From Candidatus Babeliales bacterium (GTDB lineage Bacteria; Babelota; Babeliae; Babelales; RVW-14), in contig JAIEPG010000005.1 of assembly GCA_019749895.1 (NCBI GenBank), forward strand, positions 6,884 to 70,883: DNA of 64,000 nucleotides, in the 5' to 3' direction. Below, one piece after another: positions 36 through 55,034 of the stretch. The notes under the pieces were generated by a model. That model worked only from the letters and a program-made list of their open reading frames with translations. It made no database searches and had not been told where the DNA came from. Numbering within the stretch: the first letter of the stretch is position 1; every line of letters starts with the position of its first letter. The position numbers and the translations under genes are program-made.

Positions 36-348
36 GATAACCTCCTGCCGCGCCGTAGTTTTAACGGAAGCGGGTAACGTAGACGGGCGATTATTTTATA
101 ACTTTATAACCTCTTTTTGGCTTTATTGAGCCTTAGTTAATATTCTAACAGAATTTTAAAATATGTAAGATAAAGAAGGAAAATAATGGCTATTTTTAGC
201 GTTTTTTGAGGGTTTTCACCTAAACGGCCGTGCCCGCAAGCCTAGTCAAGCGGCCAACTCTTCTCGAAACTGCATTCTTGGTGTAGCCTAGACCGAGACT
301 GAAAGACCGCAAAATAGTCCCTTTTAACCCAAATTTAGGAGTTTTAAA

Positions 349-1098
349 ATGTCATTATTTTATTACTGCATTGCTATTGTCATTTTTGGCGCGGGAGTGC
401 TTTTTTACTTCCACCGAACGCAAGAAACCAGCATGCAAAAAACAGCTACACGGGCGGCCCGCACCTTTGTCGAGCAAAGGTATCCGTATTCATTGCCAGC
501 CCTGCCGTATGCCTACAACGCACTTGAGCCGCACATTGACGAAGCAACTATGAATATCCACCACACCAAACACCATCAAGCGTACATCAACAGCTTGAAC
601 GAAGCGCTTGAAAAGCACCCTGAATTTCAAAACAAATCACTAGTTGATTTGTTAGCACACTTTGAAAGCTTGCCAGACAGTTTAAAAAAAGCGGTTGAAA
701 ATCATGGTGGTGGGCATGCAAACCATTCAATGTTCTGGCTGATTATGTCTCCACAGGGCGGCGGACAACCAGACGGCAAACTGGCACAAGCAATTAACGA
801 CGCATTTGGTTCATTTGAAGATTTTAAAAAATTGTTTATTGAAGCCGCAAAGACACGTTTTGGGAGCGGTTGGGCATGGCTATGCGTTGACGGTAACAAC
901 AATTTGGTGGTCACTTCAAGCGCTAACCAAGACAACCCAATCATGGAAGGTTTAATTCCCGTGCTTGGCTTGGACGTGTGGGAACATGCGTATTATTTGA
1001 AATATCAAAATAAGCGCATAGACTACGTTAACACGTGGTGGAATGTGATCAACTGGCAACAAGTTGCTGAGTATTATGCAAAGGCAATGCAAAAGTAA
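349..1098 (+). CDS. sodA: Mn-type (Fe/Mn family) superoxide dismutase with extra N-terminal hydrophobic segment
   Basis: Motifs HHTKHHQAYINSLN, GGGHANHSMFW, SANQDNP, DVWEHAYYLKYQN. AGGAG lies 7 nt upstream of ATG 349. The first ~25 aa (LFYYCIAIVIFGAGVLFYF) are a hydrophobic helix preceding the usual LPALPY start of the SOD fold. Confidence 0.9.
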   Translation: MSLFYYCIAIVIFGAGVLFYFHRTQETSMQKTATRAARTFVEQRYPYSLPALPYAYNALEPHIDEATMNIHHTKHHQAYINSLNEALEKHPEFQNKSLVDLLAHFESLPDSLKKAVENHGGGHANHSMFWLIMSPQGGGQPDGKLAQAINDAFGSFEDFKKLFIEAAKTRFGSGWAWLCVDGNNNLVVTSSANQDNPIMEGLIPVLGLDVWEHAYYLKYQNKRIDYVNTWWNVINWQQVAEYYAKAMQK

Positions 1099-1993
1099 AG
1101 CACGTCACAAAATAACCGTGCGATCTTAAAGCAGTAGCAACGTTGTGTTGCTGCTGCTTATTTTTTGTCAGTGCAACTACCACACCACCAGCACCAGCGC
1201 CAGTAATTTTGGCACCAAGCGCGCCAGCGCCAAGTGTTAAAGAAATAATATTTTCAAGATGAGCATTAGAAACACCAAGCTGGCGTAAAAACTGTTGGTT
1301 CATATTCATGCACATGCCCAACGCAGTTAGATTGCCTTGCTGGCAGGCACGCAGACCAAGCGTAAAAAGCTTAGAATAATCACGACACAAACGCTCAAAA
1401 TTGTGTGGTTGCGTTGCGCGAAAATTTTGAACAGCTGCAACCACGGTGCTTGTTTGACTGCGCATGCCGCTGTCGATCAACACGCAGTGCAGCGTTGTAC
1501 CGGGCACCACACTCGTCCGCCCTTTTTCTTTTTCAAAAACAAAAGAGCCCCCAAACGTTGCCGCAGCATTATCAATACCGCTCGGGTTACCGTGTGCTAG
1601 TTTTTCAGCCTGCAGTGCCGCATTGTTAACGGCGCACTCGTCAAGATTAAGATTGAGTGTGTCATTAAGTGCACGCACCGTTGCCACAGCAGCAGCAGCG
1701 CTGGAGCCAACACCGCCCGACATAACCACTAAATCGCCAGAAAGCGTAACTTCAAGCTGGTAGGAAATTTTAAAAAAAGTAGTGAGTGCTGTTAAGAAAC
1801 GAGTGAGTTGCTCTGGCGAGCAGACAAGCGACGGGTGCGCAAACACGCGTTGGTCAACGACATATGAAGGTTGCGAAATAATTTTTGCATGCGCCCGCGT
1901 TTGTTGCGGTAGCGCAAACACCAGCGCCGGCAGGCCGTACACCACAAAGTGCTCGCCAAACACAATAATTTTACCGTACCCGCCTTGCGTCAT
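1049..1993 (-). CDS. mvk: mevalonate kinase (GHMP kinase)
   Basis: N-terminal GKIIVFGEHFVVYGLPAL, GHMP motif MSGGVGSSAAAAVATVRAL, KITGAGAGGVVVAL. ATGA overlap with the upstream DUF35 gene. Confidence 0.85.
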   Translation of the reverse strand: MTQGGYGKIIVFGEHFVVYGLPALVFALPQQTRAHAKIISQPSYVVDQRVFAHPSLVCSPEQLTRFLTALTTFFKISYQLEVTLSGDLVVMSGGVGSSAAAAVATVRALNDTLNLNLDECAVNNAALQAEKLAHGNPSGIDNAAATFGGSFVFEKEKGRTSVVPGTTLHCVLIDSGMRSQTSTVVAAVQNFRATQPHNFERLCRDYSKLFTLGLRACQQGNLTALGMCMNMNQQFLRQLGVSNAHLENIISLTLGAGALGAKITGAGAGGVVVALTKNKQQQHNVATALRSHGYFVTCFTFALPLHNTQQLVAS

Positions 1994-2394
1994 GCACGAG
2001 ACTCCGGCACAAATTTAAGGCCGTAATGAATAATCCCGTTGGCACCTGAAACATAATATTTGCGCAGCGCCGCAACCAAATTCATACCAACGGTTAACTC
2101 TTCAAAATCAACATCGGCCAGTTGCGTCATAATGCGTGGGCCGTCGACCAGCTGCACCAACCCAACGCAGTACGGCTCATACATTTTGTGCTCACGCGGT
2201 GCGTGCGTTACCTGCGTAAATGACAACAGCGTTGCTTGATGGCGCAAAAGGATTGGTTGAAACGTGATACTGCCGCACGGGCAAAGATATTTTTTTAAAT
2301 AAAATTTTTGACTGCACACCGTGCATTGCGTGCCTTCAAGGCGGTAGCGCTGTGGGTACAAGCGCCAATTAATAATTGGACTGTTGCTGAACAT
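1990..2394 (-). CDS. DUF35-type Zn-ribbon/OB-fold protein (thiolase/HMG-CoA synthase scaffold type)
   Basis: Cys cluster CTVCSQKFYLKKYLCPCGS followed by an OB-like segment YCVGLVQLVDGPRIMTQLADVDFEELTVGMNL. Start trimmed to ATG 2394 (MFSNSPI...) because the longer ORF runs into the GC-rich repeat. Confidence 0.7.
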   Translation of the reverse strand: MFSNSPIINWRLYPQRYRLEGTQCTVCSQKFYLKKYLCPCGSITFQPILLRHQATLLSFTQVTHAPREHKMYEPYCVGLVQLVDGPRIMTQLADVDFEELTVGMNLVAALRKYYVSGANGIIHYGLKFVPESRA

Positions 2395-2400
2395 GACAAG

Positions 2401-2655
2401 CCCTTTCGTGTTGACCCTTCGACCCTTCGAGACATCCGACTTCGCTCTTCGAGCTACGACGGATTCCTCAGGGAGAACGGGAAAAACCAACACTTTTACT
2501 CTTAACACAGAACTTATAGCAAAAAAAACGAGTCTCAAAAAAATAAAAAGATCTTACTCTCATCCGTTCGCCCTGAGGAGCCTGACGAAGCTTTCTTGTC
2601 CTTCGTAGCCACGTAGGGCGTAGAAGGATAGCGTAGACAGGCGTCTCGAAGGGCA
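2401..2655. repeat. Two inverted copies of the dispersed GC-rich repeat family, flanking an AT-rich spacer
   Basis: 2401-2484 (cccttcgagac...ttcgctcttcgagctacgacgg...cctcagggagaacgg) and 2561-2655 (ccgttcgccctgagg...gtctcgaaggg) can pair with each other. Related copies occur at 5816, 36601, 40451, 40611 and 61945. Confidence 0.6.
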
Positions 2656-2730
2656 AGTATACCACGCACACACAAAAAAAAGAGCCCATGAAATAATTCA
2701 TGAGCTCTTACAATAAACTAAAAAATTATA

Positions 2731-3183
2731 CTAAAAAAGTAAGCACGAAGAACCGTACGTTACTACGCCCTCTTCATCAGAATCATTGTAATTGATATCT
2801 GTCGTATCATAAAGAGGATGATTAGGATCTGAGCTAAGTTCATAGGGAACCCGATTTTTTCTTTCTTCTTGTTCTTTTCTTCGTTTTTCATGAAAATCAC
2901 GTTGTATTCGTCGTAAATTTGCAATATACGCACGATTCTTTTGTAAAAATTTCCAATGAGCTTCCAACTCAGCCAATTTCTTATCAAACAACTCTCCAGA
3001 CTTTTTTACGTCTTCGGCTGAAACAGGAAACTGTTCAGACTCTAACGATTCTTGTGAATCACAATCAGGAGAAGGCGTACGATCTTGATGACGTGAGATT
3101 GAACTACTCGCAGCAGCAAACAATGAAGTCGCTGATGCAACAAAACTAACCGAAAGTAAAAGTATCAATAAGTGCTTTTTCAT
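2731..3183 (-). CDS. secreted coiled-coil protein ending in CaaX-like CLLF
   Basis: GGAGGAATT RBS then leader MKKHLLILLLSVSFVASATSLFAAASSS. Charged helical middle (KKLAELEAHWKFLQKNRAYIANLRRIQRDFHEKRRKEQEERK). C-terminus is ...GSSCLLF-stop. The longer ORF to 3393 was rejected. Confidence 0.6.
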   Translation of the reverse strand: MKKHLLILLLSVSFVASATSLFAAASSSISRHQDRTPSPDCDSQESLESEQFPVSAEDVKKSGELFDKKLAELEAHWKFLQKNRAYIANLRRIQRDFHEKRRKEQEERKNRVPYELSSDPNHPLYDTTDINYNDSDEEGVVTYGSSCLLF

Positions 3184-3199
3184 AATTCCTCCAAAAATA

Positions 3200-4531
3200 T
3201 TATTCGCGATTACCGCGTTTACGCACAACTCGTAGATCTTTTGTTGCATCATCGCTATCGCTATCACTCTCAGGGCTTGCCTGAATAAATGGCGAAAGTA
3301 ATGGCGCACTTGTTGGCACCGATGGTAAAAGCATGGTAAATAAATCAAGACGAAAACTTTCTTCACTTTGCATATCAACACCATCATAAGCACAAGAGCG
3401 ATTACGCTTTGAAGTTGAAGACGAAGAACTTGACGAAGTCGGTAAACTTAAGGTTTCAGACTCAACCATGATAGTTTTTGGCTCATGATCTATATCACAG
3501 TGCCGCTTGATTAATGAGTCTGTGCTTTCTTGTCCACGCTTATTTTTACTTGAAAAAACAAGCTCATGCTCAACCGGAGCCCCTTCAACATAACCAACAT
3601 ACAAAGAAAGTCCCTTACACGTTTGCCGAATTGCCAAATGTAACTCATCAAAAACTTCTTTCCATGAATCATGCAATACCAACTCGGTCACTCCAGCTTG
3701 TAATGCCTGTTCAATCTTTATGCGCAGCACAAGATGCCTAAACGAAATATTTCTAGGAATTACAAGAGCAGATCCATCACCAAACCGAATAACAACCTCT
3801 CCTGTACAAGCATCTTCAAGAACACTTTGAGCACTTTTTGCGTGTGGAGCAGGAAATTCACGAACCAGGTCGCCACGTTTCGACCAAAAACTAATAACCT
3901 TGCCGTCTATTGCGATGGTGTAAACCCCCTCAGGACGACAAAGAATCTGATCTCTAATGTGACTGCTTGGTTTGATTGTTACAATTTCACCACCGTCTAA
4001 TGATATTTGCGTTGTTTTATCAGTAGCTCTTCCAATACTATAATTCTTACTTGGTAAAAAATTGGAGCAATAATACTCTTGAAAATAAGAATGGCTAAAC
4101 CTAGGATGCAATTTCACAAAACAAGACATGAGCGCGCCATGCATACGTTCTAATGCGTCAAAATTTTTATCCAACGATATTGATGAAACTATACATTCGG
4201 CAAATTTTTGCTTTTGCTCACCCGTCATGGTATTTATTTTTTTTCCTAAAAATATCATAACATCATGCAAACCAGGCTTTGTACTTGGAACTCTTTCTTG
4301 AAACATTTCTTGAAGAAAAGCAACAAGTCTCCCGGCAAATGCATCGTGCTCGCTTGGAATAAGAGTCAAGCAAGAAAACAATGATACAAAGTCATCGTTC
4401 TCATCATGCAACGATGAACGTGCGCTTGAGCTTGACGAACTTGAACTCGAAGAGCTTGAACTTGATGCACCAAAAAGTGGCGCACCAAAAGCAAGCGAAA
4501 GCAATAATAAGCTGTAATTAAAAAATTTCAT
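3200..4531 (-). CDS. secreted Ser-rich hypothetical protein (MKFFNY family)
   Basis: Leader MKFFNYSLLLLSLAFGAPLFGA followed by 14 consecutive Ser. A second poly-Ser tract lies near the C-terminus. Its C-terminal domain is related to the 6117-6665 product (LVLRIKIEQALQAGVTELVLHDSW vs LLILKLEQLKRENHTEVTLHETW). Confidence 0.7.
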   Translation of the reverse strand: MKFFNYSLLLLSLAFGAPLFGASSSSSSSSSSSSSSARSSLHDENDDFVSLFSCLTLIPSEHDAFAGRLVAFLQEMFQERVPSTKPGLHDVMIFLGKKINTMTGEQKQKFAECIVSSISLDKNFDALERMHGALMSCFVKLHPRFSHSYFQEYYCSNFLPSKNYSIGRATDKTTQISLDGGEIVTIKPSSHIRDQILCRPEGVYTIAIDGKVISFWSKRGDLVREFPAPHAKSAQSVLEDACTGEVVIRFGDGSALVIPRNISFRHLVLRIKIEQALQAGVTELVLHDSWKEVFDELHLAIRQTCKGLSLYVGYVEGAPVEHELVFSSKNKRGQESTDSLIKRHCDIDHEPKTIMVESETLSLPTSSSSSSSTSKRNRSCAYDGVDMQSEESFRLDLFTMLLPSVPTSAPLLSPFIQASPESDSDSDDATKDLRVVRKRGNRE

Positions 4532-4555
4532 AATAACCTCTTTTGATCAATTTTT

Positions 4556-5806
4556 TTATCTACGCGTTGTTCGCTTAGTTGATGAAGAGCTTGAGTTTCT
4601 TCCTGTAGAATCACTCGACTGTGTACGCTTTGCAACAGGAGTTGTTCTTGTTGTATCACTATCACTATTCTCATCATCACTACTTTCATAATCATAACTT
4701 CTTGACGCGTGTGAAGAAGATGATGATGACGAAGAAGAAGACGAAGAGAATGATGATGATTGTAAAACACTTGAAGAACTTGGACTCGACGTTTGCGGCT
4801 CATTTAGAAAACTCATGAAATCAGCAAATTCCTCTGGATAATCATGAACGGGTCTACGGCGTCGCTTTTCGTTTCCTTGTTCTTCTTCTCGCTCAAAAAG
4901 TACTTCATGCTTACGCTCAGAAGGTTCTGTTGGCGCATGAAAGGTAAGAACAGGAGTGTGCGGCCCAGATAAACCAAGAAATAATCTTTCTAAATGTTGA
5001 AAAACATTGCGACTGTATTCATCGCCACAATCGGCGTGTGATGTGCGGCTGTGATGCCGCTTAGTGCTGCTGTCTTGTTCAAGTCGTTTCTCGCCATACT
5101 CGCAGTCATGCACATCAAGACGCTTGCTCGTTTGAATTGTTGGCGAATATTTTGGCGAATACATAATAAGTGCGGTCGATGTTACTGATGGAATAATCTG
5201 AGCTCCATAACAAACATTGCGATATTTCAAAAGATTGGTTTGAGCACGCGAAGGTATCAAAACCCCATCTTGATAATGAGAAAATGTTTGATTTTTAAAA
5301 AATTGCGCTGCTACTTGAAAAATGTTTTCATGCGAATGATAACCCATAATCGCACCCAAAGCAGACTGTGGCACGGTAGCCACATCAATCTTCCTGGTAG
5401 CAATCTTACCGTCTGGTGCAATGCCATAACCGCAAAGAACTTTTGTATCCACATCAAGAACTAATACAGCAACAACATTATCGCGATCAGCTGCACACGA
5501 TTGAGCAACCTCATGGTAAGAACCGCTAAGAATACTGGCATCGCGAAAAATAACCACATAAATTTCACGACGCGCAACACTCAACGAACTTGATAACGAA
5601 GCTGAAACAGGCACTACTGGTGGCTGATACACAATGAGTTGGCGCGATGAAGAGTCAGACTGCTTTTCACTATCGTCCAAACAAAAAGCATCAAAAAACG
5701 TCGCTAATTCTTCAATTTCTCGATCTTTCGATGAACTTGCCGCACCAAAAAGTGATGCACTCAGCCCCAAAGAAAGTACTAATAAACCGTAGTTAAAAAA
5801 CTTCAT
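4556..5806 (-). CDS. secreted Ser-rich hypothetical protein (MKFFNY family)
   Basis: GGAGGTTATT-ATG, leader MKFFNYGLLVLSLGLSASLFGAASSS. Ser-rich C-terminal region (SSSFSSSSSSSSSSSS) ending in a basic tail. Confidence 0.7.
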   Translation of the reverse strand: MKFFNYGLLVLSLGLSASLFGAASSSKDREIEELATFFDAFCLDDSEKQSDSSSRQLIVYQPPVVPVSASLSSSLSVARREIYVVIFRDASILSGSYHEVAQSCAADRDNVVAVLVLDVDTKVLCGYGIAPDGKIATRKIDVATVPQSALGAIMGYHSHENIFQVAAQFFKNQTFSHYQDGVLIPSRAQTNLLKYRNVCYGAQIIPSVTSTALIMYSPKYSPTIQTSKRLDVHDCEYGEKRLEQDSSTKRHHSRTSHADCGDEYSRNVFQHLERLFLGLSGPHTPVLTFHAPTEPSERKHEVLFEREEEQGNEKRRRRPVHDYPEEFADFMSFLNEPQTSSPSSSSVLQSSSFSSSSSSSSSSSSHASRSYDYESSDDENSDSDTTRTTPVAKRTQSSDSTGRNSSSSSTKRTTRR

Positions 5807-5815
5807 AATAACCTC

Positions 5816-5900
5816 CATCCGCCTTCGCTCTGCAAGCTACGGCGCGATTATGCTTAAAAGGGTGGATGCCGCGTCAAAGTTGTTAACGTCGACGGGCATA
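5816..5900. repeat. copy of the dispersed GC-rich repeat family
   Basis: catccgccttcgctctgcaagctacggcgcg...aacgtcgacgggc resembles 2441-2465 and the segment at 41-100 (aacgtagacgggc). Confidence 0.45.
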
Positions 5901-6116
5901 ATCAATAATATATTTTCAGATATAAAATTAATTATACCGAAAAATTAAAAAATGGCAACCGCCATCCGCAAGGCTTATTTTGGCACTATTAACCAAAATT
6001 TCCGTCTTTTTATAGTAAAAAAACGGGTAAAAAGATGAATTATCGGCTTTTAAAAAATTATAATGGGCATACTTTTTTAAAATATGCTCATTTTTAGTGA
6101 ATAAAGCGCTATTTTT

Positions 6117-6665
6117 TTAAAGAATATGACAGAAACCACTATCAACTGTGGCACCACTGTCCAAGATATGTTCTTGGCCATAAGAAAACTTTATCTTAAT
6201 ATCATTAAAATAATTCTTCAATACAGCACTCAAGCGGCGATACGTAACAACCCAGGTTTCGTGCAACGTTACTTCAGTATGGTTCTCTCTCTTCAATTGC
6301 TCAAGCTTTAAAATAAGCAATGCTTCTTGAAAAGGCCGGCCGCTCAAGCAAATTTCATAGGTTTCAGATTCAGATAGTTGGATGGGAAGGTGGTAGGGAA
6401 CACCAACATCTTCGCCAAAATAGCCACAACCCTTCATGATATGATAGGGAAAAGGCCCTTGTTCGTCTTTTGCTATACACACCTGCTCACTCAATGCTTT
6501 GTCAACATCAAAGGCTAAAAGCTTTTGCATGTCTGGGTTATCTCTATGCGGACTCAAAAAAACAGGTCTAAGACCACGAATATGAGAATAATCATCTATC
6601 CCACCAAACACCGGCACGCTAAAAGCAAACGCAAATAAGACAAAAACAGACCTGAACAAGCTCAT
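6117..6665 (-). CDS. secreted hypothetical protein ending in CaaX-like CHIL
   Basis: Leader MSLFRSVFVLFAFAFSVPVFGG. Domain shared with the C-terminal half of the 3200-4531 product. C-terminus is ...DSGFCHIL-stop. Confidence 0.65.
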   Translation of the reverse strand: MSLFRSVFVLFAFAFSVPVFGGIDDYSHIRGLRPVFLSPHRDNPDMQKLLAFDVDKALSEQVCIAKDEQGPFPYHIMKGCGYFGEDVGVPYHLPIQLSESETYEICLSGRPFQEALLILKLEQLKRENHTEVTLHETWVVTYRRLSAVLKNYFNDIKIKFSYGQEHILDSGATVDSGFCHIL

Positions 6666-6769
6666 AAAAAACCCTCACCATAAAAAATAATTTTAAAAAA
6701 ACACCAAAATCGGTGGGATATATTATTGCGCTTTAAAAAAAAATGACAATAAAAAAAAGCAAAAAATTT

Positions 6770-7921
6770 TCAAACCGCAAGAATGTGCACAGCAACCGTT
6801 GAACCAATACCACCCATATTGTGTGCCAGAGCAGTGCGGGCATTGGCTACTTGGCGCTGAGCGGCCGCACCGCGTAGCTGCCGAACCAGCTCAATAACTT
6901 GTGCCAAACCAGTAGCCCCAACCGGATGTCCCTGGGCCTTAAGCCCGCCAGACATGTTGACCGGCAAAGCGCCGCCCAGCGTTGTTATGCCTTGCGCGGT
7001 AGCACGTGCAGCTTGGCCAGGCTGGAAAAAGCCCAAATCTTCAAGCGCCATAAGCTCGGCCATAGTAAAGGCATCGTGCACTTCAACAAGATTGATATCG
7101 CGCGGCCCCACGCCTGCTTGCTGGTACGCGCGCTGCGCGGCTGTTTTGGTAGCAGAAAAAGAAGTAAGTGCGGTTCGCTCGCCAAACAATAACGAATCAG
7201 TTGCCACACCAGAGCCAACAATAAAGACCGGCTTTATGCCAGCTCGCTGGGCAAATTCCGGCGTTGAAAGGATCAGCGATGCAGCGCCATCGGTAATGGG
7301 CGCACAGTCAAACAAACCCAACGGGTCGGCAACCATGGGCGCATTGAGCGCCGTTTCTAAGGTAATTTCTTTGGTAAAATGAGCGTTGGGGTTGAGTGCG
7401 CTATGCTTATGATTTTTAACGCTCACATGCGCAAGGTCGCTGCGCGTAATGCCATGCTCATTAAAATATAAGCGCGTAATCAGCGCAAAAAGACTGGGAA
7501 AGGTAAGACCCACAAAATGGTCGGCCTCTTGCAAGCTCGCACCAATCATGCTGGTTGCCAGCACGCCGGCATCAACGTCGGTCAACTTTTCTACACCGCT
7601 GACCAGCACCACTTCAGCTGTGCCCGCTTGAATAAGCGCCATGCCCTGCTGCAACGCCAGCGAACCGGAAGCACAGGCACCCTCAACGCGCACACTGGGC
7701 ACATTAAGATTTAACACGTGTGCGGCCAACGCACCAAGATGCAACTGCCCTGCGGCACTTTCGCCAGACATGTTGCCCACCACCAACGCATTAATTTGGT
7801 GTGCCGCTAAACCGGCATCGCTCAACGCTCCCAACTGACTATGTGCCAGCAAATCGCTGAGCGACTGGTGCCACAACTCACCAAATTTTGTTTGGCCAAT
7901 GCCAATAACGGCAACTTTCAT
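6770..7921 (-). CDS. acetyl-CoA acetyltransferase (thiolase, archaeal/SCP-x-like type)
   Basis: MKVAVIGIGQTKFGE N-terminus, active-site Cys context VEGACASGSLAL, C-terminal NMSGGLKAQGHPVGATG and AHNMGG. ATGA overlap with the HMG-CoA synthase gene. Confidence 0.85.
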   Translation of the reverse strand: MKVAVIGIGQTKFGELWHQSLSDLLAHSQLGALSDAGLAAHQINALVVGNMSGESAAGQLHLGALAAHVLNLNVPSVRVEGACASGSLALQQGMALIQAGTAEVVLVSGVEKLTDVDAGVLATSMIGASLQEADHFVGLTFPSLFALITRLYFNEHGITRSDLAHVSVKNHKHSALNPNAHFTKEITLETALNAPMVADPLGLFDCAPITDGAASLILSTPEFAQRAGIKPVFIVGSGVATDSLLFGERTALTSFSATKTAAQRAYQQAGVGPRDINLVEVHDAFTMAELMALEDLGFFQPGQAARATAQGITTLGGALPVNMSGGLKAQGHPVGATGLAQVIELVRQLRGAAAQRQVANARTALAHNMGGIGSTVAVHILAV

Positions 7922-8970
7922 GCATCACCGTGCAAAGCTTTGAGATGCTGCAAATACGTTGCATACGAAACATATTTTTTTTCGGCCAGATACGCACGCG
8001 TTTGACGCGCTTTGTTTTGTACCACCACCAACTGCTCAGTTGTTTTAATCACAAACGCATCACAACCACTACCGCTGCCATAACTTACTAGTACAATTGT
8101 TTGATGTGGCTTAGCACTGTCGAGCACCGCGGTCAAACCCAGTAATGAATTGGCACTGTACGAATTTCCCAGCGTTTCAACCAACAAGCCACTCGCCAGT
8201 TGCTCACGAGAAAAACCAAGTTGACGTCCAACCATGAGCGGGAACTTGCCGTTGGGCTGATGAAAAATAACATGATCAACGTCACGTGGTTGCAAATTGT
8301 GCTGGGCAAGTAAGGCTTGTGTTGCTGCGACAACGTGCGCAAAATAGGCAGGCTGCGCGGTAAAGCGCCCCTCGTGCTCGGGGTAAGCGGCCAACGAGCG
8401 TCGCCAAAAATCCGGGGTATCGGAACTGTACGAAAGCGTGCGCTCAACCACCGCACAGGCATTTGCTACATCGTGTGAAACAATAAATGCAGCAGCGCCG
8501 GCACCGGCAGCATATTCCAAAATATCGCCCGACTTTGCTTGTGCGGTATCACTACCCACTGCCAACGCACATGAGGCCATTCCGCTTTTCACCACGCCCA
8601 AGGCTGCTTGCAGCGCAGCGGTACCACCTTTGCAGGCAAATTCAAAATCGGCAGCCAGGTAGTTGTTACCAATCCCTAAAACTTCTCCCAAAATGGTTGC
8701 TGAGGGCTTAACGGCATACGGATGGCTCTCGCTACCCACATAAACTGCTTGCAATGCCGGCGCTAAACACGCCGCACGCGTTAACGCATTTTTTGACGCA
8801 ACAACCGCCATAGTTAGCGCATCTTCGTCTGGCCCTGGTAACGATTTTTCACTCAGGCCAAGAGATTCTGCAATGCGCACAGGATCATCGCCACACGCAC
8901 GGGCCAACTCTTGAACAGCAATGCGATAGCGCGGAATGTAGGCACCATAGCCAATAATACCAGCAATCAT
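7918..8970 (-). CDS. HMG-CoA synthase, short (~350 aa) archaeal-like form
   Basis: GIIGYGAYIPRYRI start typical of the short archaeal-type enzymes. Catalytic Cys context DFEFACKGGTAAL. HQPNGKFP and SYGSGSG motifs. Confidence 0.85.
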   Translation of the reverse strand: MIAGIIGYGAYIPRYRIAVQELARACGDDPVRIAESLGLSEKSLPGPDEDALTMAVVASKNALTRAACLAPALQAVYVGSESHPYAVKPSATILGEVLGIGNNYLAADFEFACKGGTAALQAALGVVKSGMASCALAVGSDTAQAKSGDILEYAAGAGAAAFIVSHDVANACAVVERTLSYSSDTPDFWRRSLAAYPEHEGRFTAQPAYFAHVVAATQALLAQHNLQPRDVDHVIFHQPNGKFPLMVGRQLGFSREQLASGLLVETLGNSYSANSLLGLTAVLDSAKPHQTIVLVSYGSGSGCDAFVIKTTEQLVVVQNKARQTRAYLAEKKYVSYATYLQHLKALHGDA

Positions 8971-10235
8971 TATTGAAACCCTTCCGCCAAGAGCGCACGC
9001 GCACGCGCAACTGAAATATTTTTTTCAAGCACCATACAACTGGCCACAGCCTCAATTGCAGCACCGGTGGCGCCGGCAGTGATAGCAATATTTTGACTGT
9101 GCAGCCGCATATGGCCGTACTGAATGCCTTCGGTTACCAGCGCTCGCAGCGCAGCAAAATTTTGTGCCAAGCCCACCGCACCCACAACACCTGCCAACTC
9201 TTGCGCCGTTGCAACGCCAAGTATTTTAAGTGCTAAGCAGGCAGTTGGATGACTTTTGGTAATTCCGCCAACGGTTGCCACTGCCAGAGGCATTTCAACA
9301 TGCCCCACCAAATCACCCGCTTCATTTTTTTCATACCAACTGAGCGGCTGATAACTGCCCGTGCGAGCGGCATAACTATGCACACCCGCTTCGGCAGCAC
9401 GAGTATCGTTACCGGTTGCCAAGCACACAGCAACAACGCCGTTCATAATACCTTTGTTGTGCGTTGCCGCACGATAACTGTCGGCCGCTGCAAAGGCACT
9501 GGCTTGTACCATGGCATCGATGGTTGGCTGACCCAGCATTTCTTGCTTCCAGGTTGCAGCAACACGCACCACGCGCTCGGGAGAAAAATTGGAAACTATG
9601 CACAACCGCACCTGCCCGCCACACATTTTTTGGATCAGCGGGGCTATACGCTCGGCCATGGTATTTACAATGTTGGCGCCCATGGCATTGCCCACATTTA
9701 CACTCAATTTGATTGAGAGGCACAATTCGTTATTGATCAAGAGCTCGTGACCCACCACATCTACCGCCCCTCCGCCATGCTCAAGCAAGACTGGGTCGGC
9801 TTGATTGGCGTAGCTTAAAAGTTCGTTTTTGTGCGCATTAAGAGCCTGCAAGGCTTTGTAACAGTCGGGCACGCTTGCCAACAAAATTTGGCCGGTCATA
9901 AGCGGAAAACCGCCATGCGCAGTAAAGCCTCCGGCAACACGAGCAAGCTTAGCGCCGTACGAAGCAGCCGCAACCACACTAGGCTCTTCGGTAACCATGG
10001 GAATAAGATAATCATTGCCATTAACCATAAAATTGGTCGCTATGCTCAAGGGAAATGACATGACCGAAACAACATTTTCACTCATTTTTTGGGCATGAGA
10101 GATGGCCAAAGAAGCGCCAGACTGCAAGGCCTGAACCTCTTGATTAGTAAGATCGGCAAAGGCTTGAACATGCTGCAAGCGCTCTTCAACTGATTTTTTA
10201 TAAAAAGCGGGAAATCTACTGCACCTGTTTTTCAT
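8970..10235 (-). CDS. mvaA: HMG-CoA reductase, class II
   Basis: ~420 aa soluble form. SENVVSVMSFPLSIATNF, MVTEEPSVVAAAS (class II signature), VGNAMGANIVNTMAE, ATVGGITKSHP. ATG at 10235 preferred over TTG at 10250. Confidence 0.9.
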   Translation of the reverse strand: MKNRCSRFPAFYKKSVEERLQHVQAFADLTNQEVQALQSGASLAISHAQKMSENVVSVMSFPLSIATNFMVNGNDYLIPMVTEEPSVVAAASYGAKLARVAGGFTAHGGFPLMTGQILLASVPDCYKALQALNAHKNELLSYANQADPVLLEHGGGAVDVVGHELLINNELCLSIKLSVNVGNAMGANIVNTMAERIAPLIQKMCGGQVRLCIVSNFSPERVVRVAATWKQEMLGQPTIDAMVQASAFAAADSYRAATHNKGIMNGVVAVCLATGNDTRAAEAGVHSYAARTGSYQPLSWYEKNEAGDLVGHVEMPLAVATVGGITKSHPTACLALKILGVATAQELAGVVGAVGLAQNFAALRALVTEGIQYGHMRLHSQNIAITAGATGAAIEAVASCMVLEKNISVARARALLAEGFQ

Positions 10236-10459
10236 GCAACCACCACGCAAGCAAGCTTTGTTAGCTTGTTTTATGCCATTTAAGAAAAAGAATATCGTGA
10301 AAGGTAATGGATATCTTGCGCTCTGTCAATTAGTTACTACTACCGATACAAACCAAGCAAACCACACGCTTTCAATTTCTTTTATCAAAATCATTGATAA
10401 TAATATTTACTATTTGATATTTTAATAAGTAGTAGTATTAAAATAAAGAGGAGAGGCCC

Positions 10460-12016
10460 ATGAAGTCATTATGCTCATTAGTCAAATCGGTTACAACGCT
10501 TTTTGCTGTTGTAGCTCTATTTGTTGGTTCTGCCTTGTCGGCAGCATCAACAAATCCGCTTAATATTCCTACCAACTTTGCAAGCCAAGCCAATATCGAC
10601 GACCTTGCCACTGGCTATTTTAAGCAAATCAGCGGCATGTCGACCGTCGAAAACAAAATTCAAGCGCTCTCAACATTAATCGACCGCTCAGATCGCGCAA
10701 CGTTTAACGCCTCCACCCAAACGGCTTTTGGCAAACTCGTTGAAGACGCTTACAAAATGGCCACTTCAGAAAGTAGCCAACTATTGCTCTTGCCAGTACT
10801 TTCACAAGCACAGTCAAGCACGTTATTGGCACCAGTACAACAGAATTATGTCGCACAAAATATGATTTTTGGCGTTCTAAAAAACTTAATTACTACCGCT
10901 GCTCAAAAATCGACCTATCAAGATCGCTTAAATAGCCTTTCTGCCATTACCAACCCAAACAATTTTGTAACCAGACGCGGCTTGCGCATAACCCTTACGC
11001 AAGGCGTTCGCGATCTTTACTACCGAACATTGGTACAGTTGTACGAACAACGCACCAACCAAAGCAACCAAGCACAAGCACAACTGCGCGATATCATGCG
11101 CACAGCACTCAAAGGCAGCGTTCCTTTGCTCGACAACCGCCGCCGCCAATACGTAAGCCAACAGCTGTTACCAAAATTAGACGCTTTTAAAGAATTTAAA
11201 AAAGAAAGCACAACCACCAGCACAAGCGGAGCAACGGGCACTGGAGCAACAACTGGCACAACCACCGGTGGAACAACCGCAGGTACTGACAGCTCTGGCG
11301 TTCAAACAGGAGCTGGAAGCGCTACTGGCACTGGCACCTCGGGCACCGGCACAACTGCTGGCAGCCAACTGAGTGCTGGCAATGTTGCAGGCACGGGTAG
11401 TACCGACAGCCAATCAGGAACAGGTAGTGTTTCAGTTCCTGGTATTCCAGATGCTGGCACCGGCACAACCACAGGCACAACTGCAAGCTCAGGTAGCAAA
11501 ACAACGCCAGGTACCGGCAGCCTTGACGCTCAATTAGCAACAGCAACAGGAACAGGTACCTCGACAGCCGATACCAGTAACACGGTATTTAATGACGACA
11601 GAATTAAACGCTTATTAGACAGTATTGGTAAACAACCGCTCATCGAAAATCGCTTACGCTTTATGTCCAAGCTAACTGCAAAATCAGGCTCCGGAACCTT
11701 TAAGCCAGAAACACAACAAGCATACGCCGATCTCTTGGTAGAAGTAGCAAAACAAAGCAGAGAAGTTGCTACGCTTGCTCAAGACCTGCTCAAAGCAGCA
11801 AGCACCTCACCGTTACTCTCAACCAAACAACAAAAGTACGTAACATCAACCATGATACCACAGCAAACTCAACCACTTGCAACAGTAGAAACAACAATAC
11901 CTGGAGCAAAAAAACAAAAGGTCGCCAAAGTAAGAAAAGAACGTCGCGTTCAAAAGAGCGGTAAGCGCCAAGGAATAAAAGCAGGCAAAACCAAAAGAGC
12001 TGCTCAAAATCAGTAA
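10460..12016 (+). CDS. secreted protein with three copies of a novel ~80-aa module, a Thr/Gly-rich linker and a basic tail
   Basis: GAGGAG RBS, leader MKSLCSLVKSVTTLFAVVALFVGSALSAAS. Modules end in LLAPVQQNYVAQNMI, LLDNRRRQYVSQQLLP and LLSTKQQKYVTSTMIP. The T/G linker is roughly nt 11207-11585. C-terminal tail is KKQKVAKVRKERRVQKSGKRQGIKAGKTKR. Confidence 0.7.
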   Translation: MKSLCSLVKSVTTLFAVVALFVGSALSAASTNPLNIPTNFASQANIDDLATGYFKQISGMSTVENKIQALSTLIDRSDRATFNASTQTAFGKLVEDAYKMATSESSQLLLLPVLSQAQSSTLLAPVQQNYVAQNMIFGVLKNLITTAAQKSTYQDRLNSLSAITNPNNFVTRRGLRITLTQGVRDLYYRTLVQLYEQRTNQSNQAQAQLRDIMRTALKGSVPLLDNRRRQYVSQQLLPKLDAFKEFKKESTTTSTSGATGTGATTGTTTGGTTAGTDSSGVQTGAGSATGTGTSGTGTTAGSQLSAGNVAGTGSTDSQSGTGSVSVPGIPDAGTGTTTGTTASSGSKTTPGTGSLDAQLATATGTGTSTADTSNTVFNDDRIKRLLDSIGKQPLIENRLRFMSKLTAKSGSGTFKPETQQAYADLLVEVAKQSREVATLAQDLLKAASTSPLLSTKQQKYVTSTMIPQQTQPLATVETTIPGAKKQKVAKVRKERRVQKSGKRQGIKAGKTKRAAQNQ

Positions 12017-12167: not shown

Positions 12168-12239
12168 TGGTATAGAAAGAGCGAAAAAGCTTCTTTGACC
12201 GATTTTGCAGTTTTATGCATAAAAATGAAAGGTTATATC

Positions 12240-13325
12240 ATGAAAAAATTTATGAACGCATTTATTATTGCCCTCGCACTTACCGCCAACGCACTGCCAG
12301 CGGCAGAACCAACGCTTGACGAGCTGCATGCTGCAATAGAACATAACAATATTCCCGTTCTTGATACTTTGCTTCAACAAAATCCAAACATTTTTGAGCT
12401 AGACATTGAAAAAGGAACACCGCTGCACTACGCAGTTAAAAAAAATAATCAAGAAGCTGTGCAAGCACTGCTCAACTACGCCACCCAAAAAAATCTGCTC
12501 TTCCATATTCTTGATAGTAGGGACTGCGATAACCTGACTCCTCTTGAATTTGCAGACCGCCTTGGTCGTACGGGCTGCGCAACCCTCATGCGTAAGTACC
12601 AAAACATGATCGCCTTTGACTATGACGAAGCTGGCAACGCACACCCACTGCCAACAACACCTGTACGCCAACCAGCTTCAAGAGATAATCAGCTCATCGT
12701 GTCCTACAGCACTCTAAACAAACCAATTAAATTGCGCACGGCCATAATCACCAAAAACGTCACCCAAGCTGAGGATCTTTTGACAGAGAACAAAGACCTC
12801 CTTTTAGACCAAGATAGCAATAAAGATACGCTTCTTCATGGCGCTGTCCTTGTGGATAGTTTTGAGTGTGCACAAGTAATACTTGCTCATGCACAACAGC
12901 AAAATGTCTTGAATGCAATCCTCAATGCTCAAAATGCACAGGGACAAACAGCTCTGCATATGGCTGTTATGAAAAAAACAGTGATGTTGATTGCAGACGA
13001 CGAAACGGTCAAGCCAACGAGCCACATGATCGAAGATTCGCGCTTTGCCCAAGAAATTATTGATTATGCCCAAACAAGCGGCACGCTCTCTTTGATTATC
13101 AACATGAGCGATAACAAAAACGAAACGCCACTCCACCTGGCGGCAAAGGCAAAAAATGACGTGTGCATTCGGCTTCTTCTTAGCCAAGGAGCTGACACCC
13201 AAGCCCGTAACTCAATGGGACTGAGTCCCGTTGATCTTCTGCGCAAACGTGAAGATGCCGATCTGATAACCCTTTTCAAAACACAACAGAAAAAACAAAA
13301 ACAGGAAAAGTGCGTAATTTGCTAA
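12240..13325 (+). CDS. secreted ankyrin-repeat protein A1, polybasic + CaaX (CVIC) C-terminus
   Basis: Leader MKKFMNAFIIALALTANALPAA. ANK units GTPLHYAVKKNNQEAVQALL and ETPLHLAAKAKNDVCIRLLLSQGAD. Ends KKQKQEKCVIC-stop. Confidence 0.85.
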   Translation: MKKFMNAFIIALALTANALPAAEPTLDELHAAIEHNNIPVLDTLLQQNPNIFELDIEKGTPLHYAVKKNNQEAVQALLNYATQKNLLFHILDSRDCDNLTPLEFADRLGRTGCATLMRKYQNMIAFDYDEAGNAHPLPTTPVRQPASRDNQLIVSYSTLNKPIKLRTAIITKNVTQAEDLLTENKDLLLDQDSNKDTLLHGAVLVDSFECAQVILAHAQQQNVLNAILNAQNAQGQTALHMAVMKKTVMLIADDETVKPTSHMIEDSRFAQEIIDYAQTSGTLSLIINMSDNKNETPLHLAAKAKNDVCIRLLLSQGADTQARNSMGLSPVDLLRKREDADLITLFKTQQKKQKQEKCVIC

Positions 13326-13361: not shown

Positions 13362-14276
13362 ATGAAAAAATTTATGAGCCCACTAATTATCGCCCTTGCT
13401 CTTAACGCCAACGCACTGCCTGCAGCATCTAGTTACGGAGAAATCCCTGAAGTAGAATTAAGCAGAGCAATAAAATTAAACGATTTAGCTTCAATAACCT
13501 TCTGGATAAAAACAGCAAACTTACGTACACAAGATAGTGATGGCAATACACCACTTCACCTTGCCATTATTCATAACAACAAACAAGCAACAGCTGGTAT
13601 TATTTTTTCAGCACAAGAACAAAATATTCTTCCTCAAATCTTAAACATAGAGAATAACAAGGGAACTACACCGCTACAACTCGCACAACGTTCTAGCAAT
13701 AAAGAGCACCTAAAATTTATAGCCTCTATTGCCCCCGAAGAAGCACAATTTGTAAAACCCAAACAAAAAACTTTTCTTTTATTCAGGACAATAGGAACGA
13801 ACAACATTGATGAACTGAAACAATTACTGAGACAAGACAACCTCAAGCCAGCACTTCATTTTGCAACCAACAACAACAAACCTGAGTGCTTACATACAAT
13901 CTTGAGCTATGCACAGGAAAAAAACATGCTCTTAGAAACGCTCAGAACAACCAACGAACGCGGCCAAACAGCACTACATGTAGCAGCAATAAATGGCTTT
14001 ACGTTATGTATGCAAGAAATAGTTATGTTAGTACATAGTGATCCTGCAATACTGAATCTACGTGATAATAAAAACCAAACACCTCTTCATTTAGCTGCAC
14101 AACATGATCACGAAGAATGTGTTCGCATACTACTCGCCGCAGGCGCTGATACTGAATTTTCAGACACTCATGGCAATACAGCAGCTCAATGTGCTCGACA
14201 AAATAGACATGAAGACATTGCTATGATCATTGAGAAAAACGAAAAAAACAAAAAAGAAAAATGCGTCATTTGTTAA
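13362..14276 (+). CDS. secreted ankyrin-repeat protein A2, polybasic + CaaX (CVIC)
   Basis: Leader MKKFMSPLIIALALNANALPAA. GNTPLHLAIIHNN, QTALHVAAINGF, QTPLHLAAQHDHEECVRILLAAGAD. Ends KNKKEKCVIC-stop. Confidence 0.85.
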   Translation: MKKFMSPLIIALALNANALPAASSYGEIPEVELSRAIKLNDLASITFWIKTANLRTQDSDGNTPLHLAIIHNNKQATAGIIFSAQEQNILPQILNIENNKGTTPLQLAQRSSNKEHLKFIASIAPEEAQFVKPKQKTFLLFRTIGTNNIDELKQLLRQDNLKPALHFATNNNKPECLHTILSYAQEKNMLLETLRTTNERGQTALHVAAINGFTLCMQEIVMLVHSDPAILNLRDNKNQTPLHLAAQHDHEECVRILLAAGADTEFSDTHGNTAAQCARQNRHEDIAMIIEKNEKNKKEKCVIC

Positions 14277-14305
14277 TGAACGTTTATTTAAAAATAGGTT
14301 ATATC

Positions 14306-23390: not shown

Positions 23391-25274
23391 TTAAAATGTT
23401 AAATCGTGCACAATACTTTGTAACTGACTATACGCCAGTTTAGCTTCTTCCAACGAAGCTCCATCTTCAAGCGTGCTAATATCACCAATTGCAGAACCTT
23501 CAACTACCGCCTTAAGCAAGCGCCTCATAATTTTACCAGACCGCGTTTTAGGCAACCGATCAACAAAATAAACACCACGCAACACAACAAACGCGCCAAT
23601 GTGCTCACGGACTACTTTAATAATTTGTTGTTTAATCTCGTGCTCGTGCCCAACGCCACTATTTTTCAGAATGGCAAACAGCACAATCGACTCGCCCTTA
23701 ATGTCGTCATGCACGCCAATTGCTGCTGACTCTGCAACCATTGAAAGCGTTACCGCAGCACTTTCAATTTCTGCCGTGCCAATACGATGCCCCGCAACAT
23801 TAACTACTTCGTCTGCGCGACCAAGCAACCAAAAATAACCATCATCATCAACACGTGCATAATCACCGGTATAGTACATGCCTTTAAAGCGACTCCAATA
23901 AACTTCTTTAAAACGTTCTGGGTCGTTATAAATACCAATGTTCATGCCTGGCCATGGTTTTTTAATGACCAAATATCCCTTGGTACCAGCAGGCACTGCC
24001 ATACCCTGCGCATCAACAACTTCAGCTTCAATTGTTGGCAGCGGCAACGTTGCAGAACCTGGTTTAAGTAATACCAAATCTAGCCCTGCTGTTGGCGCAA
24101 TCAAAAAACCGCCCGTTTCAGTTTGCCACCAGGTATCAATAATTGGGCACTGATTAGCACCAATGCGCTCGTGGTACCAACGCCACACTTCTGGGTTAAT
24201 TGCCTCACCCACCGTTCCCAGTATTTTTAAACTTGAAAGATCAAATTTTGCCGGCCATTCATCGCCATATTTTATGCACATGCGAATGGCGGTTGGCGAG
24301 GTGTAAAAAATGGAAACGCGATATTTTTCAATCAAGCGCCACCAGCTACTTGGGTCTGGAAAATCTGGCGCACCTTCATACATAACCGAAGTAAGCCCCA
24401 GCAATAGCGGCGCATAAATAACGTACGAATGTCCGGTAACCCAGCCAATGTCTGCCGTGCACCAATAAACTGAATCACTTTTTGTATTAAACGCCCACTG
24501 CATAGTTGCACGCACGTACGTTAGGTAGCCACCAGTCGAGTGCATTAAGCCTTTGGGCTTGCCCGTAGTTCCCGACGTGTACAAAATGTAGAGCGGATGA
24601 TTAGACTCAACAGCAACCGGTTCTACAAAAACATTCTTTTCTAAATGCTCCTGCGCTATGATATCGCGCCCTTCGTGCAGCACAAGCTCGTGCTGGGAGC
24701 GTTTGATAATAATAACTTTTTCAATTGATGGGCAGTCACTAACTGCTTGATCAACAATTTTTTTAAGTTCAATTGTTTTGCCGCGGCGTATGCCAATGTC
24801 GGCTGTTATCACAAACTTTGCCTGCGTATCGTGAATGCGATCTTTAAGCGCATGGCTGCTAAAGCCAGAAAAAACTACCGAGTGCGTAGCCCCAAGGCGC
24901 GCGATTGCCAAAATGGCCGCTGCTGCCTGTGGGATCATGGGCAGGTAAACCATAACAATGTCATTTTTTTTCACGCCAAGTTTTTGCAACAAATGAGCGT
25001 ACTGATTAACCTGCTGGTACAACTCAGCATAAGTCCAAGTTATCACACTGCCCTGCTCATCTTCCCAATGAAAAGCAACTTTGTTACCAAGACCATTTTT
25101 TATGTGCACGTCAACGCACAAGTACGACGCATTAAGCTGGCCACCTTTAAACCAATGAGCATACGGCTCATGCCATTCTAAAGTTTTGTCCCAACGCTTA
25201 AACCACGCAAGTTTTTCCGCTTGTTGTTCCCAAAAATGTTCTGAATTCAAACGAGTATCAAGAGCAGGCATCAT
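23391..25274 (-). CDS. acs: acetyl-CoA synthetase (AMP-forming)
   Basis: 627 aa. YTSGTTGKPKG AMP-binding motif, WWQTETGG, YYTGDYARVDDDGYFWLLGRADEV, PKTRSGKIMRR. Confidence 0.9.
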   Translation of the reverse strand: MMPALDTRLNSEHFWEQQAEKLAWFKRWDKTLEWHEPYAHWFKGGQLNASYLCVDVHIKNGLGNKVAFHWEDEQGSVITWTYAELYQQVNQYAHLLQKLGVKKNDIVMVYLPMIPQAAAAILAIARLGATHSVVFSGFSSHALKDRIHDTQAKFVITADIGIRRGKTIELKKIVDQAVSDCPSIEKVIIIKRSQHELVLHEGRDIIAQEHLEKNVFVEPVAVESNHPLYILYTSGTTGKPKGLMHSTGGYLTYVRATMQWAFNTKSDSVYWCTADIGWVTGHSYVIYAPLLLGLTSVMYEGAPDFPDPSSWWRLIEKYRVSIFYTSPTAIRMCIKYGDEWPAKFDLSSLKILGTVGEAINPEVWRWYHERIGANQCPIIDTWWQTETGGFLIAPTAGLDLVLLKPGSATLPLPTIEAEVVDAQGMAVPAGTKGYLVIKKPWPGMNIGIYNDPERFKEVYWSRFKGMYYTGDYARVDDDGYFWLLGRADEVVNVAGHRIGTAEIESAAVTLSMVAESAAIGVHDDIKGESIVLFAILKNSGVGHEHEIKQQIIKVVREHIGAFVVLRGVYFVDRLPKTRSGKIMRRLLKAVVEGSAIGDISTLEDGASLEEAKLAYSQLQSIVHDLTF

Positions 25275-54965: not shown

Positions 54966-54978
54966 AATTATATAAATT

Positions 54979-55022: not shown

Positions 55023-55034
55023 ATTTTAAATTGG

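Follow-up and report, generated by a model that had tools for sequence, protein, structure and literature searches.

A probable upper mevalonate pathway locus with archaeal-type synthase, thiolase and DUF35 genes, split by four orphan genes, in a Babeliales bacterium

In the window analyzed here (i.e., the whole 64-kb stretch of contig JAIEPG010000005.1, on which all positions are numbered), the minus strand at 1049-10250 carries nine genes in the order 3-hydroxy-3-methylglutaryl-CoA (HMG-CoA) reductase (HMGR), HMG-CoA synthase (HMGS), thiolase, four unrelated genes, a DUF35 protein and mevalonate kinase (MVK). With good confidence, we take this locus to encode the upper mevalonate pathway; the host is an intracellular bacterium of the Babeliales (Dependentiae/TM6). 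The new points are modest: an ancestral five-gene operon, intact in three relatives, is split here by four orphan genes for secreted proteins.

That the host genome is bacterial, as the initial annotation had it, agrees with collinearity to Babeliales and with Dependentiae-type gene content. The closest HMGS match (91% identity) is annotated as Candidatus Babeliales bacterium. The Babeliales metagenome-assembled genome (MAG) GCA_019746485.1 (L001) is collinear with window 104-11380 (11.3 kb) at 84.7% nucleotide identity, the four extra genes included, and the closed 1.45-Mb genome CP064957.1 (L004) is the next relative (78%); further relatives compared were L085, L086, L087 (GCA_043822925.1), L088, L090 and the P0005 contig. 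The window also holds many ankyrin genes, many open reading frames (ORFs) with signal peptides and a gene for the nuclease NurA, which is characteristic of the Dependentiae group according to Pagnier et al. (PMC4378268). An assembly or binning chimera, considered as a source of archaeal-type genes in a bacterial contig, was rejected, since the arrangement repeats in four independent assemblies, one of them closed (1.45 Mb).

All five mevalonate genes named in the initial annotation were recovered by ORF calling and hidden Markov models (HMMs), each at the place it had given on the minus strand (Table 1). HMGS, described there as a short protein of ~350 aa, is 350 aa long with the N-terminus MIAGIIGYGAYIPRYRI; it scored 421 bits against the archaeal equivalog TIGR00748 (cut-off 353) and 471 bits against NF003274, matched 6ESQ chain I at 2e-106, and reached only 124 bits against the bacterial MvaS-type model TIGR01835, below the cut-off of 360. 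Its residues E81, C113, H237 and N269 do not vary across 20 homologues and are aligned to E82, C114, H238 and N270 of the archaeal protein. The thiolase, which had been called SCP-x-like, scored 457 bits against NF004720 (cut-off 420) and 160 bits against PF22691, and matched 6ESQ chain A at 7e-85 and 7YVY at 1e-90; its motifs C83-A-S, H282-D-A-F and G331-H-P correspond to CxS, HDxF and GHx. Both the E-C-H-N tetrad of HMGS and the HDxF of the thiolase are required for HMG-CoA synthesis (PMC12960953). HMGR carries the predicted class II signature EEPSVVAA, scored 410 bits against TIGR00532 (cut-off 260) and 322 bits against PF00368, and matched PDB 1QAX at 1e-109, with equivalents of E83, K267, D283 and H381 (P. 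mevalonii numbering) all present in the alignment. The name of TIGR00532 ("degradative") would suggest a catabolic role, which we rejected: the label spans class II enzymes generally, and the neighbours are biosynthetic. For MVK, the earlier assignment is upheld by TIGR00549 (207 bits, cut-off 163) and the GSSAA motif.

The third member of the trio, the DUF35 protein, is overstated by its 182-aa ORF, as its orthologues are 134 aa long. The HMM check proposed for it gave a divided result: the OB-fold model PF01796 matched at 54.4 bits (cut-off 27.1), while the Zn-ribbon model PF12172 reached 14.9 bits, below its cut-off of 23.2. PF12172 was passed (27.3 bits) by an orthologue of 89% identity (P0124). 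The four cysteines (C23, C26, C37 and C39) and the C-terminal IHYGLKF motif are invariant in homologues, the protein matched 6ESQ chain E at 7e-19 over its full length, and its AlphaFold model (pLDDT 80) found its best fold matches in the DUF35 chains of 6ESQ (TM 0.77-0.80). The archaeal type claimed for thiolase, HMGS and DUF35 is thus upheld by the curated HMMs, by best or near-best PDB matches to the three 6ESQ chains and by the DUF35 model.

With the catalytic motifs intact, a channelling complex may reasonably be inferred. In the pathway we propose, acetyl-CoA, derived from acetate and probably supplied by an AMP-forming acetyl-CoA synthetase (ACS) encoded 13 kb away, would be condensed to acetoacetyl-CoA by the SCP2-type thiolase, and the short archaeal-type HMGS would consume this product immediately; the Zn-ribbon/OB-fold DUF35 protein would bridge the two enzymes, so that, on the model of the archaeal complex of known structure, the second step would draw the unfavourable first one forward. 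Class II HMGR would then make mevalonate, MVK would phosphorylate it, and phosphomevalonate kinase (PMK) and mevalonate diphosphate decarboxylase (MDD), presumably encoded outside the window, would finish the route to isopentenyl diphosphate (IPP). The end use of IPP is probably undecaprenyl phosphate, because cell-wall enzymes are encoded in the window. A tblastn search of the 64 kb with a relative's PMK and MDD found neither gene, as the initial annotation had stated for the kinase and the decarboxylase. In L004, L087 and the P0005 contig both genes adjoin the operon; in L090 a PMK-like kinase was the only one of them seen there. The ACS gene adjoins the mevalonate operon in L004, L087 and L090.

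Table 1. Features of the mevalonate locus and of other parts of the window (GC3, GC content at third codon positions)
Feature	Position	Strand	Remarks
Mevalonate kinase (MVK), 314 aa	1049..1993	-	TIGR00549; GHMP N and C domains; GSSAA motif
DUF35 scaffold protein (putative), 134 aa	1990..2394	-	Zn ribbon (C-x2-C...C-x-C) and OB fold; ATGA overlap with MVK
GC-rich intergenic leader, 285 nt	2395..2679	-	upstream of DUF35; nested imperfect inverted repeats I1 and I2; RNA fold z = -4.2
Terminator-like hairpin	2680..2709	-	13-bp stem, 4-nt loop, T8; directly 3' of insert gene 4; conserved in L001
Insert gene 4, 150-aa orphan	2731..3183	-	signal-peptide-like N-terminus; ends ...SSCLLF (CaaX-like); no Pfam family
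Insert gene 3, 443-aa orphan	3200..4531	-	signal-peptide-like N-terminus, then poly-Ser run; no Pfam; GC3 0.286
Insert gene 2, 416-aa orphan	4556..5806	-	signal-peptide-like N-terminus MKFFNY..., Ser-rich tail; no Pfam; GC3 0.285
Insert gene 1, 182-aa orphan	6117..6665	-	signal-peptide-like N-terminus; ends ...FCHIL (CaaX-like); no Pfam; GC3 0.377
SCP2-type acetoacetyl-CoA thiolase, 383 aa	6770..7921	-	NF004720, PF22691; ATGA overlap with HMGS
Archaeal-type short HMGS, 350 aa	7918..8970	-	TIGR00748; overlaps HMGR stop by 1 nt (TAATG)
Class II HMGR, 421 aa	8970..10235	-	TIGR00532, PF00368; ATG at 10235, ORF extends to TTG at 10250
Divergent promoter region, AT-rich	10236..10459	.	between HMGR and the gene of a 518-aa secreted protein; promoter-like sites 10425-10397 and 10496-10468
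AMP-forming acetyl-CoA synthetase (ACS)	23391..25274	-	PF16177, PF00501, PF13193; conserved operon neighbour in relatives
CaaX-type ends CVIC, CVIC, CIIS, CIIS, CLIS, CLLF	12195-13325, 13362-14276, 14261-14848, 16961-18319, 29567-30220 (+), 2731-3183 (-)		
Looser CaaX matches	6117-6665, 43598-44419	-	C-terminal ends

A derived split of the mevalonate operon

The gene overlaps reported earlier (TAATG, ATGA and ATGA) are present at the HMGR/HMGS, HMGS/thiolase and DUF35/MVK junctions respectively, and they fit the translational coupling that had been read from them. On the other side of the insert, the DUF35 gene lies 4.4 kb downstream of the thiolase gene on the same strand, with the four unrelated genes and a terminator-like hairpin in between, i.e., neither adjacent to it nor apparently co-transcribed with it. 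To place this arrangement, the HMGS alignment was scanned against one genome per GTDB species and the best 80 loci were evaluated: HMGS, thiolase and DUF35 were contiguous in 54 of the 70 loci that could be judged. Among the relatives, three (L087, L090 and the P0005 contig) have HMGR-HMGS-thiolase-DUF35-MVK as an uninterrupted run with overlapping junctions, and three more (L085, L086 and L088) show a contiguous HMGR-HMGS-thiolase-DUF35; the window, L001 and L004 are the only ones in which DUF35 is detached from the thiolase. L004 has, in addition, an inversion of the SOD-MVK-DUF35 block, and its gap is filled by genes other than those of the window. The sister of the group formed by the window, L001 and L004 is L087 (97% bootstrap), whose operon is intact; the split is therefore derived. 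Thus the ancestral state would have been a single translationally coupled operon HMGR-HMGS-thiolase-DUF35-MVK, into which four fast-evolving orphan genes for signal-peptide proteins would have entered between thiolase and DUF35 in the window's lineage.

Outside the window, the orphan genes have orthologues in L001 only. Insert gene 1 has its sole orthologue there (83% at the amino-acid level, likewise ending CHIL), insert genes 2 and 4 have orthologues in L001 only (71%, and 81% with the ending CSLL, respectively), and for insert gene 3 a search of 5.8 billion proteins gave the L001 orthologue as the single homologue. The identities to L001 are 71-83% for the insert genes and 86-95% for the enzymes.

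Given the terminator-like hairpin and the 285-nt leader behind it, DUF35-MVK is most likely a transcription unit of its own behind a strong terminator, in which case the leader must carry its putative promoter. The leader is conserved in L001 only in part and matches no Rfam family (an Rfam scan of the whole window returned two tRNAs only). Its motifs CTCGAAGGGTYGAAGG and CCGTTCTCCCTG recur in intergenic DNA at 40450-40700, beside two tRNA genes; these GC-rich inverted-repeat sequences (2395-2679 and 40450-40700) may be a small REP-like element family or a regulatory leader.

Two further observations were made at the ends of the locus. The superoxide dismutase (SOD) gene (349-1098, plus strand) converges on MVK, the 3' ends of the two genes overlapping by 50 nt (1049-1098), and this overlap is kept in L001 and L004. 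At the other end, a tract of 1,011 bp (10174-11184) is 100% identical to L001, the surrounding 11 kb being ~85% identical and the second-longest identical run being 71 bp. The tract spans the 5' end of HMGR (20 codons if translation starts at the ATG at 10235, 25 if it starts at the TTG at 10250), the divergent promoter region and 725 nt from the start of the gene for the 518-aa secreted protein, and reflects either recent recombination or gene conversion between the two lineages or a cross-assembly chimera.

Several lines of evidence weigh against reading the locus as a working pathway with a channelling complex: i) it is homology that points to complex formation and to acetoacetyl-CoA channelling, and with the DUF35 gene probably apart from its partners' transcript, stoichiometric assembly is not guaranteed; ii) the Zn-ribbon model stays below cut-off for DUF35, as given above; iii) in the DAMGAN motif of HMGR, the position of D183 (P. 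mevalonii) is Asn (residue 183 from the ATG at 10235; window 9687-9689), a change found in the window and L001 only, the other HMGRs compared (16 of 16) having Asp; iv) the lower-pathway genes of this bacterium would be those known from its relatives, and the absence of the methylerythritol phosphate (MEP) route is taken from phylum-level literature (PMC6107057); v) Pagnier et al. (2015, PMC4378268) report an inability to synthesize isoprenoids for Babela massiliensis and TM6SC1, which means that the pathway is not universal in the phylum; and vi) the trees described below are neighbour-joining trees on simple distances with limited sampling.

Points i) and ii) lead to an alternative in which DUF35, once split off, no longer scaffolds thiolase and HMGS and is heading for loss or for another partner, leaving the enzymes without channelling. 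The 4.4 kb and the terminator that separate its gene from those of its partners would agree with this, as would the PF12172 score and the seven GTDB loci where HMGS-thiolase has no detectable DUF35 nearby. However, DUF35 is conserved as strongly as the enzymes (89% identity to L001 and 81% to L004), its four cysteines and its C-terminal motif are invariant, and its ATGA coupling to MVK is kept in four genomes, which makes such a loss of function improbable. More improbable still is a function outside the mevalonate pathway, with the trio as an acyltransferase repurposed in the manner of PhlABC/MucABC or as a thiolase-DUF35 module serving polyhydroxyalkanoate (PHA), fatty-acid or steroid side-chain chemistry. 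PhlA, PhlB and PhlC are indeed the next PDB matches behind 6ESQ, and DUF35 proteins pair with several kinds of thiolase (PMC12960953, PMC12329534); but the distance is large (359 vs 190 bits for HMGS and 288 vs 111-127 bits for the thiolase, 6ESQ vs Phl), the E-C-H-N tetrad and HDxF, lost in those acyltransferases, are intact in the window proteins, and the trio genes share their operon with HMGR and MVK.

Ancestry and base composition of the mevalonate genes

In a concatenated neighbour-joining tree of HMGS, thiolase and DUF35 (65 loci), the window, L001, L004, L087, L085 and L086 formed a clade with 100% bootstrap, whose sister was a pair of archaeal MAGs, L005 and L017 (DPANN-like), at 96%; the corresponding support in the single-gene trees was 76, 85 and 60%. 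Splits supported at 86-100% set the versions of FCB/Acidobacteriota and of Chloroflexota apart. The HMGR tree placed the Babeliales-like clade in a group with L005 and L080 (92% bootstrap). Moreover, in a tree of 201 HMGS sequences the window fell into a 71-member metagenome cluster that includes a labelled Babeliales protein, with Woesearchaeota and Diapherotrites as the nearest labelled outsiders. The initial annotation had named a placement of all five proteins within ordinary bacterial clades as the outcome that would speak against it; in our trees the genes lie outside the MvaS/MvaE-type bacterial clades. An independent character points the same way as the trees: the second Zn knuckle of DUF35 is C-x-C, through a one-residue deletion, in the six clade members, L005 and L017, and C-x-x-C in the six other loci displayed. 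A word-indexed DUF35 search returned seven proteins, too few for mapping this variant. From these comparisons of sequences, an archaeal connection appears plausible.

The archaeal MAGs L005, L017 and L080 combine archaeal-type HMGS, thiolase and DUF35 with MVK, L005 and L080 also having a class II HMGR. L017 and L080 hold classical MDD and PMK in one cluster. At a distance of 3 kb, L005 additionally has AcnX and UbiD, by which the anhydromevalonate route of archaea is recognized.

As for base composition, the enzyme genes are GC-richer than their neighbours, as had been observed from hand counts: their GC content is 0.49-0.55, vs 0.34-0.43 in the 2.5-6.7 kb insert and a window mean of 0.434. 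The lateral origin that had been attached to this contrast does not follow. In each of nine genomes compared (28-43% GC; Dependentiae relatives and three archaeal MAGs among them), HMGR, HMGS and thiolase exceeded their flanks by 2-11 GC points, with the thiolase at the top, alone or jointly. The GC3 values of these genes follow the host genome (e.g., 0.15-0.18 in the 28% GC genome); in the window they are 0.44-0.53, overlapping those of UvrC, MiaB, NurA and SecA (0.41-0.52), and those of the insert are 0.29-0.38. Therefore the contrast is one of gene-intrinsic composition plus a low-GC insert, and mostly of the low GC3 of that insert.

The most likely history, and part of the best explanation of the locus, is vertical inheritance of the gene set among the members of the Babeliales-like clade, with an archaeal affinity that is ancient, not recent; any inter-domain transfer is older than the radiation of that clade. 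A recent lateral transfer of the five genes from an archaeon, with the high GC as donor signature, was the reading of the initial annotation, and the archaeal type of the trio and the 5-11 GC points by which the enzyme genes exceed the window mean could be cited for it. It is very unlikely nonetheless: at least eight relatives carry orthologues in this same backbone, their HMGS identities going down to 53-58%, and the orthologues form the fully supported clade described above, the GC excess of the same genes repeats in genomes of 28-43% GC with GC3 tracking each host and overlapping other housekeeping genes of the window, and it is the insert rather than the enzyme genes that stands out, by its low GC. 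Whether the ancient affinity reflects an operon-level exchange between DPANN-like archaea and the Babeliales-like ancestor, in either direction, or vertical descent from a bacterial/CPR (candidate phyla radiation) ancestor (Hoshino and Gaucher) is a question of origin alone, so that an exchange is compatible with the functional explanation. Such an exchange is a credible possibility that we stop just short of favouring. It would account for the sister position of L005 and L017, for L005 and L080 inside the well-supported HMGR group, for the shared C-x-C knuckle (none of the six other loci displayed has it), for Woesearchaeota and Diapherotrites as nearest labelled neighbours, and for the order HMGS-thiolase-DUF35-MVK, then MDD-PMK, that L017 and L080 share; L005, moreover, is truly archaeal, as AcnX, UbiD and a class III signal peptide adjoin its locus. 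On the other hand, the trees are by neighbour joining only, with weak deeper nodes (bootstrap <=24), L005, L017 and L080 are classified merely as "archaeon", and the matches listed by the GTDB scan included a single CPR genome and none of Babeliales, which leaves the CPR sistership of PMC6107057 poorly sampled.

CaaX-like ends and secreted-protein arrays

Beyond the mevalonate genes, six of the 73 predicted proteins of the window end in Cys-aliphatic-aliphatic-X (CaaX), where 0.17 would be expected (binomial P ~3e-8). In three of the CaaX proteins the Cys is preceded by a polybasic run, and most of the six begin with a signal-peptide-like segment. Four of the genes belong to an ankyrin cluster (Pfam ankyrin matches were checked for three), and two CaaX-like genes, insert genes 1 and 4, lie inside the mevalonate operon. 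In the L001 orthologues found, the Cys at -4 is always kept and the other positions vary (CAIC, CIIC, CLIS, CSLL, CHIL). An exhaustive HMMER search with a 304-aa CaaX ankyrin protein gave one orthologue (P0133); giant multi-ankyrin proteins dominated the result, which does not inform on the spread of CaaX ends.

More broadly, a signal-peptide-like N-terminus (M-[IKL]-KK-hydrophobic-...-AA) was seen in ~45 of the 72 predicted ORFs. Small paralogue-like genes and genes for ankyrin proteins fill 12000-34400 and 42400-58500 in tandem arrays, interspersed in a housekeeping backbone (UvrC, NfeD/Band7, ACS, MiaB, YchF and SecA) that is compact in L087 and L090; UvrC, Band7/NfeD, ACS and the mevalonate genes are conserved as in L087.

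Eukaryotic CaaX prenylation boxes are used by Legionella effectors such as AnkB (PMC2916131), which the boxes of the window resemble; in the literature library searched, no paper linking CaaX with Dependentiae was found. Tentatively, and with more doubt than belief, two linked claims may be put forward jointly: i) the five-gene operon was exchanged as a unit between DPANN-like archaea and a Babeliales-like Dependentiae ancestor, an event marked by the shared zinc-knuckle deletion; and ii) it was then invaded by host-directed orphan genes, part of a wider secreted set of ankyrin and orphan proteins whose conserved CaaX boxes are lipidated by prenyltransferases of the protist host. If true, the host-prenylated CaaX strategy documented for Legionella would extend to Dependentiae.

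Comparison with known systems

The nearest characterized system is the thiolase/HMGS/DUF35 complex of Methanothermococcus thermolithotrophicus, reportedly described by Vogeli et al. in PNAS in 2018 (PDB 6ESQ/6ET9). The window proteins belong to the same three families and match the corresponding chains, with the same catalytic motifs, the same DUF35 fold and the same pathway context. Unlike in 6ESQ, the host is bacterial, the DUF35 gene is parted from HMGS-thiolase by four foreign genes and coupled to MVK, the second Zn knuckle is C-x-C and not C-x-x-C, the reductase is of class II, and the lower pathway of the relatives is the classical one of PMK and MDD.

Homologous HMGS-like/thiolase-like/DUF35 architecture is also found in the Friedel-Crafts acyltransferases PhlABC of Pseudomonas and MucABC of Streptococcus (PDB 5M3K and 9VBO). 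These have lost the HMGS tetrad and the thiolase HDxF and make no HMG-CoA (PMC12960953), whereas the window keeps both, and its neighbours are HMGR and MVK, not polyketide synthase (PKS) or nonribosomal peptide synthetase (NRPS) genes. With the MvaS/MvaE upper pathway of Firmicutes and other cultured bacteria (TIGR01835), the locus shares the reactions and a class II HMGR; it differs in its HMGS family (124 bits against the cut-off of 360), in its SCP2-type thiolase instead of thiolase II, in lacking a thiolase-reductase fusion and in having a DUF35 subunit. The term "unrelated" that the initial annotation used for MvaS went too far, as the two HMGS types are homologous, though of different families. 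Nor is the archaeal type rare in bacteria, as had been implied: 34 of the best 80 GTDB loci were bacterial, from at least nine phyla (including Aminicenantes, WOR-3, Saccharimonadales, Chloroflexota, Bacteroidota/Ignavibacteria, Calditrichota, Acidobacteriota and Gemmatimonadota), and a 2026 paper counted 1,030 bacterial HMGS/ACAT/DUF35 loci (PMC12960953).

For the phylum itself, Hoshino and Gaucher (2018, PMC6107057) reported Dependentiae as the one bacterial phylum without MEP genes, having the mevalonate (MVA) route only, and placed its acetoacetyl-CoA thiolase (AACT) and HMGS in an archaeal/CPR clade. The archaeal type of the first mevalonate steps in Dependentiae is already known from that work, and knowledge of the pathway is unchanged by ours. 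The locus agrees with the survey in phylum, in having an MVA route (by that survey the sole one) and in the placement of AACT and HMGS in the archaeal/CPR and not the bacterial/eukaryotic clade. The nearest labelled neighbours here are DPANN-like archaea rather than CPR, with one CPR genome sampled. The survey makes no mention of DUF35 or of operon structure, and the split operon is a feature of the window's lineage. As the mevalonate pathway is, per the literature, the only isoprenoid route of these obligately intracellular bacteria, the genes are probably essential, e.g., for the undecaprenyl carrier lipid. The locus bears on the debated origin of the mevalonate genes of bacteria, ancestral or acquired from archaea; to this debate it adds a reconstruction of the ancestral operon and the C-x-C knuckle as a rare-change character tying the clade to a specific archaeal group.

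Finally, the operons of L087, L090 and the P0005 contig correspond to the window in orthologous genes, gene order and overlapping junctions. Of the backbone neighbours, ACS is found as in the relatives and UvrC as in L087 and L090, while the Band7/NfeD and TPR genes vary among relatives. Unlike L087, L090 and P0005, the window, L001 and L004 have lineage-specific genes between thiolase and DUF35, and the locus is thereby an example of a probably essential operon split by effector-like orphan genes with all its parts retained.

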